From Gammaproteobacteria bacterium (GTDB lineage: Bacteria; Pseudomonadota; Gammaproteobacteria; SZUA-229): 50,386 nt of DNA. The first letter of the stretch is position 1; each line of letters begins with the position of its first letter. Made by a program: the position numbers and the translations under genes. The stretch lies in NCBI GenBank assembly GCA_029287435.1, contig JARFRD010000012.1, positions 1 through 50,386 of the forward strand, written 5' to 3'. This document shows positions 9,264-23,393 of this stretch, piece after piece. The notes beneath the pieces are model-generated. The model searched no databases. It saw nothing but the letters and a program-made list of their open reading frames with translations, and was not told the DNA's origin.

Positions 9264-11127
9264 TTGAATTCTTCAAGGCCCCTCTTTTTTCTTAGCTGTT
9301 TGATCCTGATTAGCGCCTGTACCACACCCGGTCAGGACAAGAGCGTCGACGATATGATCACCGATGCCGTGCGCAATCAGCCAACGGATCCGGTGGATGC
9401 CGGGGACGAATTAACCGCCGAACATTACATCGGCCTTGCCACCGAAAGCACAGGTAAACAGCGCGAACAATACCTGCTGAAGGCTGCCGAGCTTCTGTAT
9501 CAACGCGGCGACCTCAGCCAGGCCCAAAGCCAGTTGCAAAACCTGGATTCTGCTTCACTCGCCAGAAGCCGCCAGAACCAGATCAACCTGCTTGCTGCCA
9601 AGATCGCGCTTGCCAACGAAAACCCGAGGCAGGCTCTCGAACTGCTACCCGAACTGAACGAGCTTCCGCTTGATCAGTATATTGACGCTCGCGAAATTGA
9701 TGCAGATGCCAGGCTTGCACTGGGTCGCCCCCTCGAGGCTGTACGCATCAGAGATACACTAGACCGGCATCTGGAAACACAAGAGGCACGAGAACAAAAC
9801 CATGAAGCCATCTGGGCAGCTCTGCAACGCACCCCGACCGTGAGCATGCATAAGCAGCCGGATGACAGCCAGTCAGTCAAAGGCTGGATTGAGCTCGCCG
9901 GCATTCTCAGAAATGCACAGATCAACATGAGCCGCATGCAGGACCAGATTCTTGACTGGGGTATGCGTTATCCAGAACACCCGGTCAGCAATGCATTCAT
10001 CGATACACTGTTAAACGAGTACCAGAGCAATTACATCCCTTCTGCAAGCATTGCGATCCTGTTGCCCATGCAGGGCACCTACAAAAATGTAGCTGACGCG
10101 ATCCAGGGTGGCATACTCAGCGCCTGGTACGCTGACTCACGCGTCGACAAGCCATCGTTGCGCTTTTATGACACCAGCGCAGCTGATTCCACTGTCGATG
10201 ACCTGTACCAGAAAGCCTCTCTCGATGGCGCCAACTTCATCATCGGCCCGCTCGATAAAGACAGCATTAACCAGCTTGCCGACAAAAGCATCATAGATAT
10301 ACCCATGCTCACGCTGAACTATGCCGAGAATCCGCGGATTCGCACTGACAACCTGTACCAGTTTGGTCTGCTACCGGAAGATGAAGCCGCACAGGCTGCC
10401 GAACTCGCTATTCGTGATAACCATATGAACGCGGCCGTACTTGTGCCTAACAGTGACTGGGGACGTCGCTTGCATGATGCTTTCAAGAAACGCTATGAAG
10501 AACTGGGCGGCCGTGTACTAACCGTGCAGCAATACCCGACCAATGTGGATGACTATTCACGCCCATTAAGGCTGTTACTGAATCTCGACGAAAGCCAGGC
10601 CCGTCATCAGGACCTGCAACGCATTCTTGGCACGAAACTCGAGTTTGAACCTCACCGACGCCAGGATATAGACATGATTTTTCTCGCAGCAACCCACCGC
10701 TCAGCACGCGGTATCGTGCCTGCACTGAAGTTCTATCGTGCCGGCGAACTCCCGGTATATGCCACTTCTCATGTATATAGCGGGCACATTGATAAAGCCG
10801 CTGACCGCGATCTGAACGGGGTAACTTTCTGTGATTTACCGTGGACATTGACAACAAACAGCCCGTTGAAAGCAGGCTTCAACACCACCTGGAAAGACCA
10901 GCGTGCTTACACACGTCTGTTCGCCCTGGGTATTGATGCCTATCAACTGATTCAAAACCTTTCCTATCTCGAGTCGTATGATTACGCCCGTTTCCCGGGA
11001 GAAACCGGAAATATCTCGCTGGATGAGAACAACCGCCTTCACCGTGAATTACTCTGGGCAAAATTCAAAAAAGGCATCCCTGTTTACATCGACCTCAGCC
11101 TCAGACCTGCACCAACACCCGGGAACC

Positions 11128-11144
<17 letters not shown>
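9264..11144 (+). CDS. lpoA: Penicillin-binding protein activator LpoA (lipoprotein)
   Basis: Lipobox ISAC, TPR-like N-terminal half, IAILLP...G, GPLDK and LFALGIDAY; divergent from rsmI and followed by yraN. Confidence 0.93.
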
Positions 11145-12092
<948 letters not shown>

Positions 12093-12174
12093 AGTTATCA
12101 GTTTCAAGTTGAAAGTTTTAAGTTGAAAATAATTCTGGTGTGCAAGGCGCACAAATAACTTTTAACTTATAACT
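12093..12174. repeat. Heptamer-periodic imperfect palindrome (AGTTnnn x5 / nnnAACT x3)
   Basis: agttatc agtttca agttgaa agtttta agttgaa (12093-12127), central hairpin gtgtgc-aag-gcgcac, then aataact tttaact tataact (12154-12174); between convergent gmhA and sspB. Confidence 0.8.
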
Positions 12175-16247: not shown

Positions 16248-17378
16248 ATGCAAAATAAGGCAATTCAATTCATTCTTAAATGGGTAATGATTGGCATTAT
16301 CGTTGGTACCGCTATTCTGTATTACCAGGGGTACATTTCTTTTCATTTCAACGGCTCGAGTTCGCAATTAGCTTTAATTGGCAAAGGTCGCGACAGTTTC
16401 GCCGATGCTGTTAACATGACAGCGCCCGCAGTGGTCAGCCTGCAGGTCGAGAGTATTGTTGAGGTCCCGATACAGGACAGCGAACGCAAAGAGCTGGAAC
16501 AGATCTTTGGCAAACACCTGCCTAACCTGACCCAGGCAAAACCGCTCAGCAGTTCGGGCTCCGGTGTCATAATCAACACCGACGGTTATGTCATCACCAA
16601 CCACCATGTAATCGCAAAGGCCGAACGAATTTCCGTCATACTCAATGATGGTCGCTCTGCTGTGGCTGAAATGGTGGGCACTGATCCTGATACCGACATT
16701 GCCGTACTCAAGATTGCACTCGACAATTTGCCCGAAGTAAAAATTGCAGACATCAATACACTCAATATCGGAGATGTCGTACTCGCAATCGGCTATCCCT
16801 TCAGAATTGGTCAGACCGTTACCCAGGGCATCATCAGCGCGACCGGTCGATCTCAGGTCAGCCAGAACACATACGAAAACTTCCTGCAAACAGACGCGGC
16901 AATTAATCCCGGCAACTCGGGTGGTGCATTGATCAATACACGTGGTGAGATTATTGGTATCAACTCATTGATTTACACGGAATCAGGCAACTTTGCCGGC
17001 ATAGGTTTTGCCATACCGATAAACCTCGTCACCGATGTAATGCAACAAATCATTAAGAATGGCTATGTCATTCGCGGCTGGCTCGGTGTGGAAGGTCAGA
17101 GTGTTTCACCACAAATGCTGAGCAGTATTGGTATCGAAAATACCAAGGGAGTGCTGATTACCGGTGTTGATATCGGCGGACCCGGTCAGAAAGCCGGCCT
17201 GCTACCCGGTGATATCATCACCCATGTCAACAACAAGGAAATCGTTGGCACCACGGATATTCTGGATATGATTGCTGCGGGTAGACCCGGTGACCAGCTG
17301 CGCATCGATGGTCTGCGTCAACGCCAGAGCTTTACTGCTGTTGCTACCCTGGGACAACGACCACTCATGAGCCAATAA
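16248..17378 (+). CDS. degS: DegS/AlgW-like membrane-anchored serine protease with one PDZ domain
   Basis: N-terminal TM; triad motifs TNHHV, DIAVLKI and GNSGG; single C-terminal PDZ domain; position next to hisC. Confidence 0.85.
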   Translation: MQNKAIQFILKWVMIGIIVGTAILYYQGYISFHFNGSSSQLALIGKGRDSFADAVNMTAPAVVSLQVESIVEVPIQDSERKELEQIFGKHLPNLTQAKPLSSSGSGVIINTDGYVITNHHVIAKAERISVILNDGRSAVAEMVGTDPDTDIAVLKIALDNLPEVKIADINTLNIGDVVLAIGYPFRIGQTVTQGIISATGRSQVSQNTYENFLQTDAAINPGNSGGALINTRGEIIGINSLIYTESGNFAGIGFAIPINLVTDVMQQIIKNGYVIRGWLGVEGQSVSPQMLSSIGIENTKGVLITGVDIGGPGQKAGLLPGDIITHVNNKEIVGTTDILDMIAAGRPGDQLRIDGLRQRQSFTAVATLGQRPLMSQ

Positions 17379-17381
17379 AAA

Positions 17382-17442
17382 AGTCGTTCGTCATTGGTCT
17401 TTCGTCGTTCGCCAAAAGACGAATAACTAATGATTAGCGACT
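17382..17442. repeat. Heptamer-periodic imperfect palindrome (nGTCnTT x4 / AAnGACn-like x4)
   Basis: agtcgtt cgtcatt ggtcttt cgtcgtt (17382-17409), then aaagacg aataact aatgatt agcgact (17415-17442); between convergent degS and hisC, overlapping the hisC stop. Confidence 0.7.
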
Positions 17443-18513
17443 TAATGCTTTTGTAAGTGCTGACATAAAGGCCTGGTTTTCTTCAGACGTACCAATCGTC
17501 ACCCTGAGACAGTTGCTGAGCACACCACCGGCAGGGCTCATGTTTTTAATCAGCACACCGGCGTCACGCAGCCTGTTGAAGACGTCGGTAGCATCGCCCT
17601 GCTTGAGTTTAAACAGGATGAAATTAGCCTGACTCGGATAAACCTCGAGCTCATCAAATAATGACAGCTGTTTCAGCATGTGATCCCGGTCACTGCGAAT
17701 CATTTCTGCCTGACCCTCGAGGAAGCCGGCATTATCCAGGATAAAACTGGCCGTGTACTGGGTCAGCACATTGATGTTGTACGGCAATCGAATCTTGTTG
17801 ACCTCCTCGATCAGCTCCGGATTACCGCAAAGCAAACCCAGGCGCAAACCCGCCAGACCCATCTTCGATACCGTGCGCATTACCAGTAGTTGATCATACT
17901 CTGCCAGCTTCGGCATGAAGCTGGTTTGTGCAAATGGATGATAGGCCTCATCAACCACCACGAGCCCGGGGGCCAGCGCAATAATCTCTTCGACTGCTTC
18001 TGCATCAAACAGGTTTGCCGTTGGATTGTTTGGATAGGCAATGAAAATTAACGCTGGCTGGTGCTGCTCAATCGCTGCACGCGTGGCGTCCATATCGATG
18101 GAAAAGTCTGCTGCGAGTGGAATACCCACATAGTCGAGCCCGACAAAACGCGCGATCATGTCGTACATCACGAAACCGGGCTCAAACGACATAATCGAGC
18201 GCCCTTCCCCGGCAATCGCCATTGCCAGCATCTGGATCAGCTCATCGGAACCATTGCCAAGTACCAGTGATTGCCCCTCGGGCACCTGCATGACTTCGGC
18301 CAGTCTCTGCGTCAATTCACTCGCAGCCGGGTCCGGGTAGCGGTTGATGTCTGCAGTCGCCAGCCCTTGCTGCCATTGTTGCAAAAGTTCAGCCGGCAGA
18401 TGATAGGGGTTTTCCATCGCATCCAGCTTCACCATACCTGTAGCGTCGGCCACGTGGTAAGCCTTGAGCTCACGAATTTCCGGGCGAATCCATTTCAGTA
18501 TATTTTCGGACAT
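17434..18513 (-). CDS. hisC: Histidinol-phosphate aminotransferase
   Basis: VKLDAMENP, NRYPD, GNGSDELI, PNNPT, DEAY and RTVSK(PLP Lys)MGLAGLRLG. Confidence 0.98.
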   Translation of the reverse strand: MSENILKWIRPEIRELKAYHVADATGMVKLDAMENPYHLPAELLQQWQQGLATADINRYPDPAASELTQRLAEVMQVPEGQSLVLGNGSDELIQMLAMAIAGEGRSIMSFEPGFVMYDMIARFVGLDYVGIPLAADFSIDMDATRAAIEQHQPALIFIAYPNNPTANLFDAEAVEEIIALAPGLVVVDEAYHPFAQTSFMPKLAEYDQLLVMRTVSKMGLAGLRLGLLCGNPELIEEVNKIRLPYNINVLTQYTASFILDNAGFLEGQAEMIRSDRDHMLKQLSLFDELEVYPSQANFILFKLKQGDATDVFNRLRDAGVLIKNMSPAGGVLSNCLRVTIGTSEENQAFMSALTKALSR

Positions 18514-19383: not shown

Positions 19384-20688
19384 TCAGTCTCTAATCCGGT
19401 ACTCTGCCGAGCGCGCATGCGCTACCAGGCCCTCACCTTCAGCAAGTACTGACGCACATTTACCCAGATCAGACGCCCCCTGTGCAGATGCACCAATCAG
19501 GCTCGAGCGTTTCTGGAAATCATACACACCTAGCGGTGATGAGAAACGCGCGGTGCCGGATGTTGGCAACACGTGGTTAGGTCCCGCGCAGTAATCGCCC
19601 AAAGCTTCAGCCGTATAGCGACCCATGAAAATTGCACCTGCATGACGAATCTGTTGTGCCCATTGATCGGCATCATCCATCGACAGCTCAAGATGTTCCG
19701 GTGCTATCAGGTTTGCAACACGAATAGCGTCATCCATATCAGTCGCACTGATTAACGCTGCACGATTTTCCAGTGATGTTTTTATAATGTCCGCCCGAGG
19801 CATTTCGGTTATCAGCTTATCGATACTGGCTTTTACCTGCACAAGAAAAGCGGCATCCGGGCTGACCAGAATTGATTGTGCATCCTCATCATGCTCAGCC
19901 TGAGAAAACAGGTCCATTGCAATCCAGTCAGGATCGGTCTTGCCATCACACACGACCAGAATTTCTGACGGGCCGGCAATCATGTCGATACCAACGACAC
20001 CGTAAACCATGCGTTTTGCGGTGGCGACATAAGCATTACCAGGACCGGTGATGATATCAACCCTGGGAATAGTATCCGTACCGTAGGCCAGCGCACCAAC
20101 AGCCTGCGCACCGCCAATGGTAAACACACGATCGACACCCGAGATTGCAGCTGCGGCCAGCACCAGGTCATTGCGTTCACCACCCGGTGTTGGCACGACC
20201 ATGATCAGCTCAGGCACACCGGCAACTTTCGCCGGTATCGCATTCATTAACACGGAAGACGGGTAGGCTGCTTTGCCACCCGGCACATACAGGCCTGCCC
20301 TGTCCATTGGTGTAACCTTTTGCCCCAGCACGGTGCCATCTTCTTCGGTGTAGGACCAGGACTCCATCTTCTGGTGTTCAGCGTAGGCACGCACCCGACT
20401 GGCGGCATGTTCGAGCGCTTCGCGGTGACTGCTGTCGATTGCATCAAGCGCACCCTGCAGATCATCCTTTGACAGTTCAAGTTCAGCCGCGGATGACACA
20501 TCAACACGGTCGAACTTCTGCGTATACTCAAGCAGCGCCGCATCACCACGCTTGCGTATATCGTCGAGAATTTCTGTAACGGTGATAACAACTGCATTAT
20601 CCGTAGACTGCTCCCAGGCAAGCAGCTGATCCAGTTGCTGCTGGAAATCAGTCTCACGGGTATCCAGTTGCGTGATGTTTATACTCAT
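19384..20688 (-). CDS. hisD: Histidinol dehydrogenase
   Basis: [36 protein letters not shown] and [13 protein letters not shown]. Confidence 0.99.
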
Positions 20689-21305
20689 GCGACCGCCTTG
20701 CTCACCTGGTCAATCAAAGATTGAATGCGCTGGTGTTTCATTTTCATTGCCGCCTTGTTCACGATTAAACGCGAGCTGATATCCGCGATATGATCAATCG
20801 GCACCAGGCCGTTGGCCTTGAGCGTGTTACCGGTATCAACCACGTCAACGATCAGGTCTGCGAGTCCGACAATAGGGCCGAGCTCCATCGAACCGTAAAG
20901 CTTGATCACTTCGACCTGCTCACCGCGTGACTCAAAAAAGCGTTTCGCTACGTTAACGAATTTGGTCGCAATGCGTTTACGTCCGTTAATTGCCTTGGCA
21001 TCAGCCAGCCCAGCTGTCATCAGCTTGCACCTGGCGATCTTTAAATCGACCGGCTCATACAAACCTTCGCCGCCATGCTCCATCAATACATCTTTACCTG
21101 CGACGCCGACATCGGCTGCTCCGAACTGCACGTAGGTGGGTACATCAGTAGCACGAATAATGACAAGTTTTACATCGTCATGATTCGTATCGAGAATCAG
21201 TTTACGGCTGGTTTCGGGATCATCGACAGGCACAATGTCAGCGGCGGCCAATAATGGCAACGTTTCCTTGAAGATGCGTCCTTTTGATAAAGCTATTCTG
21301 ATCAT
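20685..21305 (-). CDS. hisG: ATP phosphoribosyltransferase, short form (HisZ-dependent)
   Basis: [26 protein letters not shown] and [14 protein letters not shown]; 206 aa without the C-terminal regulatory domain. Confidence 0.98.
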
Positions 21306-21313
21306 GATAGCTG

Positions 21314-21348
21314 AATGAATAGTGAAGAATGAAAAATGAACAATGAAG
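21314..21348. repeat. Heptamer array A(A/G)TGAAn x5, one arm of the four-helix-bundle cassette
   Basis: aatgaat agtgaag aatgaaa aatgaac aatgaag. Confidence 0.85.
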
Positions 21349-21351
21349 TAA

Positions 21352-21714
21352 TCACATGTTTGCCTTTATATTTGATTTTGCAGTTTTAATGCTTGATACC
21401 AATAACTTAATTAATTCATCAATATCAGGCAGTAAACTTTTATACATTTTTTCAGTTAGATAATCACCACAATGTAGCAACTTTAACCAATATCTGGTTT
21501 CGTTTGCCTCTTTAAGCGCAATACTTAACTTGTGAACAAAATCAGATTTCGACTGCGCAAACTCAGCTTCGCTGATCAATGCACCAATAGACGTTCCAGA
21601 TCTAAGTAATTGCTTGTTTAAAACATATTCCTTTCTGTTAGAGCTTAAAAACCGGGCTAACCTAACTATACGAAGCGCAAATCTAAAGCTTTTATCCTTA
21701 AGAACATTCCCCAT
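21352..21714 (-). CDS. Four helix bundle protein (TIGR02436 / 23S rRNA IVS-protein-like)
   Basis: [21 protein letters not shown]...EA...QS..DF..KL.IALKEA.ET.YWL motifs; visibly AT-rich relative to murA and hisG. Confidence 0.92.
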
Positions 21715-21740
21715 TTCACATTCCTTATGAATTCCTTGTT

Positions 21741-21782
21741 ACTAATTATTCACTTTTCACTACTCAATATTAGTTATTCATT
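21741..21782. repeat. Inverted heptamer array x6, other arm of the four-helix-bundle cassette
   Basis: actaatt attcact tttcact actcaat attagtt attcatt; the reverse complement includes aatgaat, agtgaaa and agtgaat. Confidence 0.75.
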
Positions 21783-21784
21783 GA

Positions 21785-23393
<1,609 letters not shown>

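Follow-up and report, generated by a model that had tools for sequence, protein, structure and literature searches.

A heptamer-armed PF05635 gene in the murA-hisG junction of a gammaproteobacterium: a candidate operon counterpart of the 23S rRNA intervening sequences

The closest described relatives of the element presented here are the intervening sequences (IVSs) of 23S rRNA that carry an open reading frame (ORF). The IVS of Coxiella burnetii resides in helix 45, measures 428 nt and is closed by a 28-bp terminal stem in which RNase III cuts (Warrier et al. 2016, PMC4990558). Just upstream of its S23p ORF are three to four tandem heptamers, whose number varies between strains, and further ORF-bearing 23S IVSs are cited for Leptospira and other bacteria (PMC4990558). 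Here, we analysed a stretch of 50,386 nucleotides from a gammaproteobacterium (GenBank assembly GCA_029287435.1, contig JARFRD010000012.1, positions 1 to 50,386; referred to as the window), in which a gene of the same family, enclosed by inverted heptamer arrays, lies between murA and hisG on the minus strand. This element (21306-21784) is probably a promoterless, stem-closed PF05635 cassette akin to the rRNA IVSs, which would be carried on operon transcripts and processed by RNase III.

Heptamer repeats have also been described from intergenic regions. TAACTGA arrays occur in Beggiatoaceae, Cyanobacteria and Bacteroidetes (PMC4679880), GGGNATC heptamers, 70-75 inverted pairs included, in Xanthomonas and Nostoc (PMC4692102), and paired heptanucleotide sites in Geobacter metallireducens (PMC2700814). 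These reports propose translational regulators, G-quadruplexes or global regulator sites and make no link to PF05635. The family itself is listed in the context of Avd and the diversity-generating retroelements (PMC10053308). Full-text literature searches by family names returned no description of armed PF05635 cassettes in operons, outside rRNA, in agreement with an earlier note on this DNA, made from the sequence alone, which knew of no formal description of such a form.

The cassette gene (21352-21714, minus strand) encodes a four-helix-bundle protein of 120 aa of the type called '23S rRNA intervening-sequence protein' (PF05635/TIGR02436). It scored 95.2 bits against PF05635 (cut-off 33.8; residues 7-106) and 107 bits against TIGR02436 (cut-off 24; residues 6-113), and it matched chain A of PDB entry 2RLD over residues 3-115 (E=5.3e-38), a fold relationship drawn here by sequence alone. 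ORF calling and these hidden Markov model scores confirmed that a gene of this family splits murA from hisG. No other TIGR02436 gene is present in the 77%-complete genome. Pairwise ratios of non-synonymous to synonymous substitution (dN/dS) among orthologous copies were 0.05-0.14, with synonymous sites saturated (proportion of synonymous differences, pS, 0.56-0.92), and the comparison argues that the gene is functional and kept by purifying selection. Within the cassette, neither promoter-like nor terminator-like sites were found on the minus strand. An Rfam search of 21100-22000 matched no family, and among the PADLOC models of anti-phage defence none matched the 120-aa protein at E<=0.01.

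With 479 bp, the cassette occupies the entire spacer between its upstream host gene murA (UDP-N-acetylglucosamine 1-carboxyvinyltransferase; 21785-23047, minus strand; PF00275, 421 bits) and its downstream host gene hisG (ATP phosphoribosyltransferase; 20685-21305, minus strand; PF01634). On the mRNA, the 3′ arm (21303-21354, minus strand) extends from the stop codon of the cassette gene to the hisG ATG (21303-21305) and contains five nTTCAYT heptamers, equivalent to ARTGAAN x5 on the plus strand (21314-21348). This arm was delineated by Tandem Repeats Finder, by a pattern test and by folding. The first of these returned A(A/G)TGAAn x5 exactly at 21314-21348 (period 7, 5.1 copies), as the earlier note had read it, and the pattern ARTGAAN x4 matched at these positions alone, with 0 matches in 100 shuffles. 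The 5′ arm (21737-21789, minus strand), delineated by period-7 score and folding, begins at the murA stop codon and is composed of the degenerate purine-rich heptamers AATGAAT, AACTAAT, ATTGAGT, AGTGAAA, AGTGAAT and AATTAGT. Six inverse heptamers had been claimed for this side. An inverse period-7 array does exist at about 21737-21784, but it is the more degenerate of the two, with a period-7 score of 15/21 and two to three good TTCACT/TTCATT units.

In the predicted fold of the minus-strand RNA, 21737-21789 forms 43 long-range pairs with 21303-21354 in both the minimum free energy and the centroid structure. The stem, with the murA stop codon (21785-21787) at its base, is predicted to place the murA UGA opposite the hisG AUG and to keep the ORF within the loop together with AAGGAA, a Shine-Dalgarno-like sequence read at 21721-21726 (minus strand), 6 nt ahead of the cassette ATG. 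The earlier proposal that pairing of the arms loops out the ORF with its ribosome-binding site is thus borne out at the level of prediction. On the mRNA, the purine-rich arm lies 5′ and the pyrimidine-rich arm 3′. A within-species T/C polymorphism in the 3′ arm faces a G, so that G.U becomes G-C, a single anecdote.

The heptamer-armed layout is a trait of the PF05635/TIGR02436 family. A first sample took in the 80 nearest homologues, at 56-72% identity, which belong to Gammaproteobacteria, Campylobacterota, Bacteroidota, Chloroflexota, Patescibacteria and others, at least five phyla in all; 78 of them were scored for a stem, with 190 ORFs from the same loci as controls. When a locus was called armed at an ungapped flank-to-flank stem score >=12, 64/78 homologues but only 7/190 control ORFs were armed (p=1e-27). 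Of the 156 homologue flanks, 134 scored best at period 7, and both flanks were periodic at 36/78 homologues as compared with 0/190 controls. A second, independent sample, an even set of about 400 Pseudomonadota genomes of which 70 carry the TIGR02436 family, contained 46 armed genes among 70 (20/30 + 26/40). The enrichment of arrays around family members that the earlier note had asked about was therefore found in both samples. The armed share, 66-82% by this rather loose score, varies strongly with the criterion applied and with the clade sampled.

Flanking genes tend to point the same way as the cassette gene, which favours its being carried on host transcripts. Upstream neighbours were co-directional in 71/77 cases, downstream neighbours in 62/69 and both in 59/67, whereas 68% (one side) and 49% (both sides) are the baseline values of the window's genome. 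With median distances of 63 and 46 nt to the neighbouring genes, the spacers are taken up by the arms. It is nearly always the 5′ arm that is rich in purines, with C at 2-9% of positions in its profile, and the 5′ array usually leaves a few nucleotides to the start codon or the Shine-Dalgarno sequence. Arrays range from 2 to 14 units and typically hold 4-6. The heptamers themselves vary widely among loci (AGTGAAA, GAGGAGT, AATTAGA, AGTTAAA, AGTGATA and others), and arms of the same locus match each other better than arms of different loci (median 18 vs 12, p=2e-10). An apparent ARTKARR consensus is due to the relatedness of the 80 close homologues.

Some loci depart from this plan (L, G and C labels denote the loci, genomes and contigs compared). 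L049, L050, L113 and L118 follow an alternative layout A - A′ - gene - A′, in which a full hairpin stands upstream and its 3′ arm recurs as a direct repeat behind the gene; in L050 this repeat is 44 nt long, exact, and takes in the stop codon. L046 has same-sense arrays on both sides of the gene. At three loci the cassette opens with a perfect palindrome of the last codons of the upstream gene (L172:1915-1950, 16 bp; L095, 18 bp; L119, rpsI end, 11 bp). As a general mark of the junction this palindrome was discarded, since it occurred at 3/71 loci and 6/283 controls.

The murA-hisG junction allowed us to follow the history of one cassette. The arrangement of murA next to hisG is kept in relatives, and nine further genomes, with MurA proteins 84-89% identical to that of the window, have a homologue of the cassette gene at this junction. 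Together with the window's copy they form one group of ten in the protein tree of the family. In seven sampled species of the same genus the gene is missing from this junction and spacers measure 43-236 nt; mapped onto the MurA tree, the filled state takes 3-4 changes within the bacterial family. The best reading of these comparisons is that the insert at murA-hisG is old, was vertically inherited in this gammaproteobacterial family and was lost several times. The arms of the orthologous copies are still periodic and complementary, in L036 nearly perfectly so. Neutral non-coding arms would have randomised at an age at which synonymous sites are saturated, which argues that they are maintained, be it through selection or through ongoing homogenisation. 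A gene remnant in the 236-nt spacer of G001 was considered and rejected; just 13-14 nt of the hisG-side arm are held in common. The empty murA-hisG junctions of four same-genus species (L003, L005, L006, L007) carry a one-sided (G)nACGAG x4 array directly after the murA stop codon with no inverse partner, which resembles the 5′ arm of the rpsI-tRNA cassette (see below) in the same genomes.

Filled and empty states of the junction also occur within the species. The exact HisG protein of the window occurs on 20 contigs; nine of the ten listed are filled, and the filled cassettes with identical HisG differ from the window's at 0-3/479 positions. One strain, L161 (JGI 3300049098, Ga0499545_0001189), has an identical HisG but is empty, with 36 nt from murA stop to hisG start and no heptamers. 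We compared it with the contigs L157-L166 over the region that corresponds to 21283-21806 of the window. Away from the junction the flanks are 99.5-99.7% identical, with 4 differences in about 1500 nt upstream and 11 in about 2000 nt downstream. At the junction, by contrast, synonymous differences, and no others, occupy 7 positions within the final 22 nt of murA and 11 within the initial 63 nt of hisG. The murA end of L161 is 2-3 nt away from the empty alleles of other same-genus species and 7 nt from the filled allele, and L163 is a recombinant. A sharply bounded synonymous patch within near-identical flanks argues for allelic replacement by homologous recombination rather than for precise excision or insertion. 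From these sequences, the cassette looks to have been gained and lost between relatives through homologous recombination in the flanking genes, not through transposition.

A second site gives a similar picture. Five relatives (L117, L119, L120, L122 and L123) carry a different member of the family, with GGCGAGG-type arms, between rpsI and a tRNA gene; the copy in G009 has three in-frame stops and that in G004 is truncated. In the window's genome, 32 nt free of arms separate rpsI from the tRNA gene (G000 contig C114, about position 11770, reverse strand). As the empty alleles L161 at murA-hisG and G000:C114 at rpsI-tRNA are both arm-free, the arms belong to the cassette and travel with the gene. 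The unit of arm, gene and arm thus proved to be discrete, as the earlier note had suggested. Its proposal of filled and empty states held in so far as relatives, and one strain of the same species, have empty murA-hisG alleles, but the true empty alleles are devoid of arms.

A second lineage of cassettes occupies murA-hisG in the same genus. It is present in the MAG (metagenome-assembled genome) G008 (L115/L004) and on a longer contig (L172:1905-2420), encodes a protein of 116 aa that shares only 55% identity with the window's and stands no nearer to the murA-hisG group than to copies from Bacteroidota, and has AGTGAAC/AGTTAAC arms. G008 holds the ends of different cassette alleles on two contigs, C148 and C141. 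A tandem arrangement of cassettes was rejected, as the longer contig has one cassette per junction; C148 and C141 therefore represent two alleles or a mixed bin.

That the cassette is instead a mobile hairpin element was part of the earlier proposal. According to this alternative, the unit of arm, gene and arm transposes into gene boundaries, gene-free hairpins are non-autonomous or emptied copies comparable to MITEs (miniature inverted-repeat transposable elements), and the protein serves as a mobility or maintenance factor. The idea draws on the recurrence of the design at numerous unrelated junctions across five phyla or more, on arms that come and go with the gene at murA-hisG and rpsI-tRNA, and on the two unrelated cassette lineages at one junction. 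It would also accommodate the A - A′ - gene - A′ loci, where a deletion from one direct repeat to the other would remove the gene and leave a hairpin behind, and the symmetric nested inserts found in some arms (see below). However, neither of the two empty alleles, L161 and G000:C114, revealed a target duplication or scar, no transposase, integrase or reverse transcriptase was present in or near the cassette, and the exact window protein was found in the murA-hisG context only (8 contigs), with one copy in this genome. Transposition therefore did not stand up as the way in which the cassette is gained and lost, and we consider the mobile element an unlikely explanation, also in view of the gene-free hairpins.

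The gene-free hairpins had been taken for empty copies of the cassette. Two of them lie in the window and are real heptamer hairpins, but they are built of other heptamers and sit at convergent gene ends, so they are not empty cassette copies. The first (12093-12174; no strand assigned) consists of AGTTnnn x5 and nnnAACT x3 around a small central hairpin, belongs to the AAGTTnn class (fold z -2.96) and lies between a convergent SIS-domain gene and sspB. The second (17382-17442; no strand assigned), GTCnTTn x4 and its inverse, is of the GACGAAn/TTCGTCn class (fold z -7.69) and lies where a trypsin-PDZ protease gene and a hisC-type aminotransferase gene converge; the hairpin (17376-17446) overlaps the stop codon of the latter. 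Folding of 17376-17446 gave -29.7 kcal/mol on the plus strand (z -7.69) vs -19.5 on the minus strand, and the predicted stability on the plus strand suggests that the hairpin acts on the 3′ end of the protease transcript.

Throughout the genome, period-7 arrays are in clear excess, at 34 compared with 1, 2, 6 and 8 for 5, 8, 10 and 11, other periods not divisible by 3. Thirteen paired gene-free hairpins of AAGTTnn, GACGAAn and GGCAAGn types were found, and 8/13 lie at convergent gene ends, whereas the cassettes reside in co-directional junctions. Gene-free ARTGAAN arrays of at least three units, the type around the window's own gene, are absent from this genome. AAGTTnn arrays are restricted to this bacterial family and vary hugely in number (four-unit hits: G020 204, G014 72, G012 18, others 0-18). 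G014 and G012 are complete genomes without the four-helix-bundle gene, so a requirement of the gene for heptamer arrays was rejected. The abundance of AAGTTnn arrays in gene-less genomes shows that the hairpins are an independent repeat class of the lineage. The convergent positions, the lack of ARTGAAN arrays and the arrays in gene-less genomes run against gene-free hairpins as derivatives of a mobile cassette.

Heptamer types shared by cassettes and hairpins point in the other direction. Cassettes of relatives use the types of the gene-free hairpins (AAGTTnn, GACGAAn-type and GGCRAGG), and in G015 the AGTCTTA type occurs both in an empty hairpin and around the gene. A historical link is possible on sequence grounds, in which the hairpins would be gene-less derivatives or the arms would have been drawn from host hairpins. 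Two further observations concern these repeats. AAGTTnn arrays are greatly expanded in G020 and G014, where many lie at contig ends; the assemblies are broken there. In G000, contig C204 contains at 11034-11143 a gene-free GGCAAGG/CCTTGCC hairpin with a 36-nt loop, located in a co-directional junction after a tgt-like gene. Its polarity is that of the cassettes, with the G-rich arm 5′.

RNA processing is the most likely mechanism for the cassette at murA-hisG by analogy with its rRNA relatives. The cassette would be transcribed as part of the murA-hisGD operon, and the predicted stem, which spans from the murA stop codon to the hisG ATG, would loop it out. As in the ORF-bearing 23S rRNA IVSs, the long duplex would probably be an RNase III site. 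A cut there would separate the insert from the host messages, so the insert would be tolerated inside an essential operon. For the protein, our best guess is an oligomer that binds nucleic acids, like its relative Avd. The case for action at the RNA level rests on orientation bias, the constant polarity with the purine-rich arm 5′ and the experimentally studied rRNA relatives, not on covariation statistics.

Several points weigh against this scheme. Co-transcription, pairing and cleavage are all inferred. The stem has a mean pair probability of 0.46, and the whole-cassette segment of 505 nt folds no better than shuffles (z -1.49, not significant), so that arm pairing by itself is plausible but not compelling. 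A wobble signature of sense RNA was sought in 92 stems and rejected, since G.U (73) and A.C (68) mismatches were equally frequent under symmetric scoring (p=0.74). A duplex-energy test showed a weak sense-strand bias (48 vs 28 loci, p=0.03), and in the window's own arms the antisense duplex is stronger than the sense duplex. The arms of the orthologues L032, L035 and L037 contain perfect inverted repeats of 50-70 nt, nested symmetrically, which differ in sequence per genome and all carry a (T)CCATCCATGG(A) core at their inner edge; they look more like DNA-level homogenisation than like RNA selection. The deeply divergent second lineage indicates that murA-hisG either was colonised twice or saw one cassette replaced by another, and the scheme does not account for the first arrival at murA-hisG or at differing junctions in other phyla.

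Part of this evidence would be expected if the arms were purely a matter of DNA, with slippage and template switching (quasipalindrome correction) keeping them complementary, no role for RNA and a gene that merely persists. Equal numbers of G.U-type and A.C-type mismatches agree with such a process, as do the genome-specific perfect long inverted repeats in L032, L035 and L037, which would fit DNA-level copying between arms or nested insertion into hairpin loops. Ongoing slippage also predicts near-perfect arrays (L036) beside degenerate ones at the same orthologous site. Yet it leaves unexplained why this one gene family is enclosed (64/78 vs 7/190), why the purine-rich arm is placed 5′ and why the gene is co-oriented with both neighbours, and among the homologous rRNA elements the stem is known to work as RNA (PMC4990558). 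We therefore regard a purely DNA-level origin of the arms as distinctly improbable and favour the stem-closed cassette on operon transcripts.

The position of the 5′ array a few nucleotides before the start codon or Shine-Dalgarno sequence could also be read as a binding site. In such a model, the oligomeric protein would bind its own heptamers, in RNA or DNA, for autoregulation in the manner of TRAP, a ring protein that reads short repeats, and pairing of the arms would be a competing state. Arrays of typically 4-6 units and the deposition of 2RLD, the closest solved relative, with five chains would suit such a ring. Avd, a relative, likewise forms a pentamer, basic in character, with affinity for nucleic acid. 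Against dedicated binding sites, one clade of the protein family has quite unlike heptamers (L113 GCAGTAA, L114 AGTCGTT, L118 AAGTTAT, L121 AGTCTTA), and array length ranges from 2 to 14 units. A trinucleotide AGT common to all heptamer types at fixed phase was tried and dropped, as it occurred in 14/50 consensus heptamers compared with 10.2 +/- 2.6 after shuffling of letters. Arms that serve as protein-binding sites are accordingly very unlikely to account for the layout.

A partnership with a resident reverse transcriptase, as in the Avd model, was likewise rejected, since no association was seen across genomes. The DGR (diversity-generating retroelement) role of Avd does not apply to the cassette because the window's genome lacks a reverse transcriptase (PF00078 / RVT_1) and only 2/12 related gene-carrying genomes have one.

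The window itself is contig C208 of a 2.62-Mb assembly (G000) with 218 contigs, 77% completeness and 49.6% G+C, whose nearest relatives in NCBI are labelled Gammaproteobacteria or Thiotrichaceae MAGs. Genes called around the locus are STAS, murA, hisG, hisD and HSP20. On the minus strand, the order is murA, the 120-aa ORF, hisG and hisD (19384-20688, minus strand; PF00815), the last of which follows hisG.

The cassette shares features with several known systems. With Avd it has in common the small four-helix-bundle fold related to PF05635, but the window contains no nearby reverse transcriptase, template repeat or variable repeat. Like an integron cassette, it is a promoterless single gene with imperfect inverted repeats that fold as hairpins, and it would be expressed from host transcription. 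In contrast to integron cassettes, it has two arms around the gene instead of one attC, and such cassettes occur as single scattered copies in operon junctions instead of arrays. No integrase or attI platform was seen among the genes around the locus; no genome-wide integrase search was made. MITEs and the repetitive extragenic palindromes and bacterial interspersed mosaic elements (REP/BIME) are short multi-copy intergenic palindromes, and the gene-free hairpins of this genome resemble them and cluster at convergent ends. The cassette differs in that its arms are tandem heptamers of non-conserved sequence, that no target-site duplication was seen and that it is single-copy.

The intergenic heptamer repeats are similar in their period of 7, their frequent position just upstream of starts or between co-directional genes, their occasional occurrence as convergent stem-loop pairs and their variable number. 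The gene-free hairpins at 12093 and 17382 belong with these published repeats, which in cyanobacteria, Beggiatoaceae, Xanthomonas and Geobacter are unexplained, just as the nature of the rRNA IVSs and the role of their ORF have been open since about 1990. It is tempting to bring all of them together, although we hold this broader scheme to be speculative and rather unlikely. PF05635 genes with inverted heptamer arms would then make up a single widespread class of stem-closed cassettes able to live wherever a transcribed site puts up with a hairpin, the 23S rRNA IVSs would be the special case resident in rRNA, and part of the intergenic heptamer hairpins would be derivatives that lack the gene. 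The periodic arms would be the target of the oligomeric protein and, being alike from host to host, also recombination handles that let unrelated cassettes swap at one junction, as suggested by the two deeply divergent lineages at murA-hisG in one genus.

The closest correspondence is with the ORF-bearing 23S rRNA IVSs, a kinship which the earlier note had recognised and which the Coxiella IVS, with the same kind of ORF, a stem, heptamers and RNase III cuts, supports (PMC4990558). Both elements encode a member of the same family (PF05635, 'S23p') and are similar in size (428 nt in Coxiella, 479 nt in the window). In both, terminal inverted repeats surround the ORF and make up a long stem, predicted in the case of the window, and the 5′ arm carries tandem heptamers right ahead of the ORF (GACAGAT x3 in Coxiella). 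Both reside inside a transcribed unit that must stay functional. In contrast to the rRNA IVSs, the host site in the window is the junction of two protein-coding operon genes and not the tip of an rRNA helix, and both arms are heptamer arrays. Furthermore, the ORF of the window is intact and under purifying selection, whereas that of Coxiella was reported to be decaying and apparently untranslated, and RNase III cutting, shown in Coxiella, is expected here by analogy. To this comparison the window adds a filled/empty pair within a species, an orthologous series of eleven filled alleles and a second allele lineage at the same site, which indicate that on visible timescales such cassettes spread via recombination in flanking genes and not by transposition. 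A stem around an intact, selected ORF in ordinary operon junctions across phyla would turn a ribosomal curiosity into a general design for keeping a gene inside an essential transcript without breaking it.

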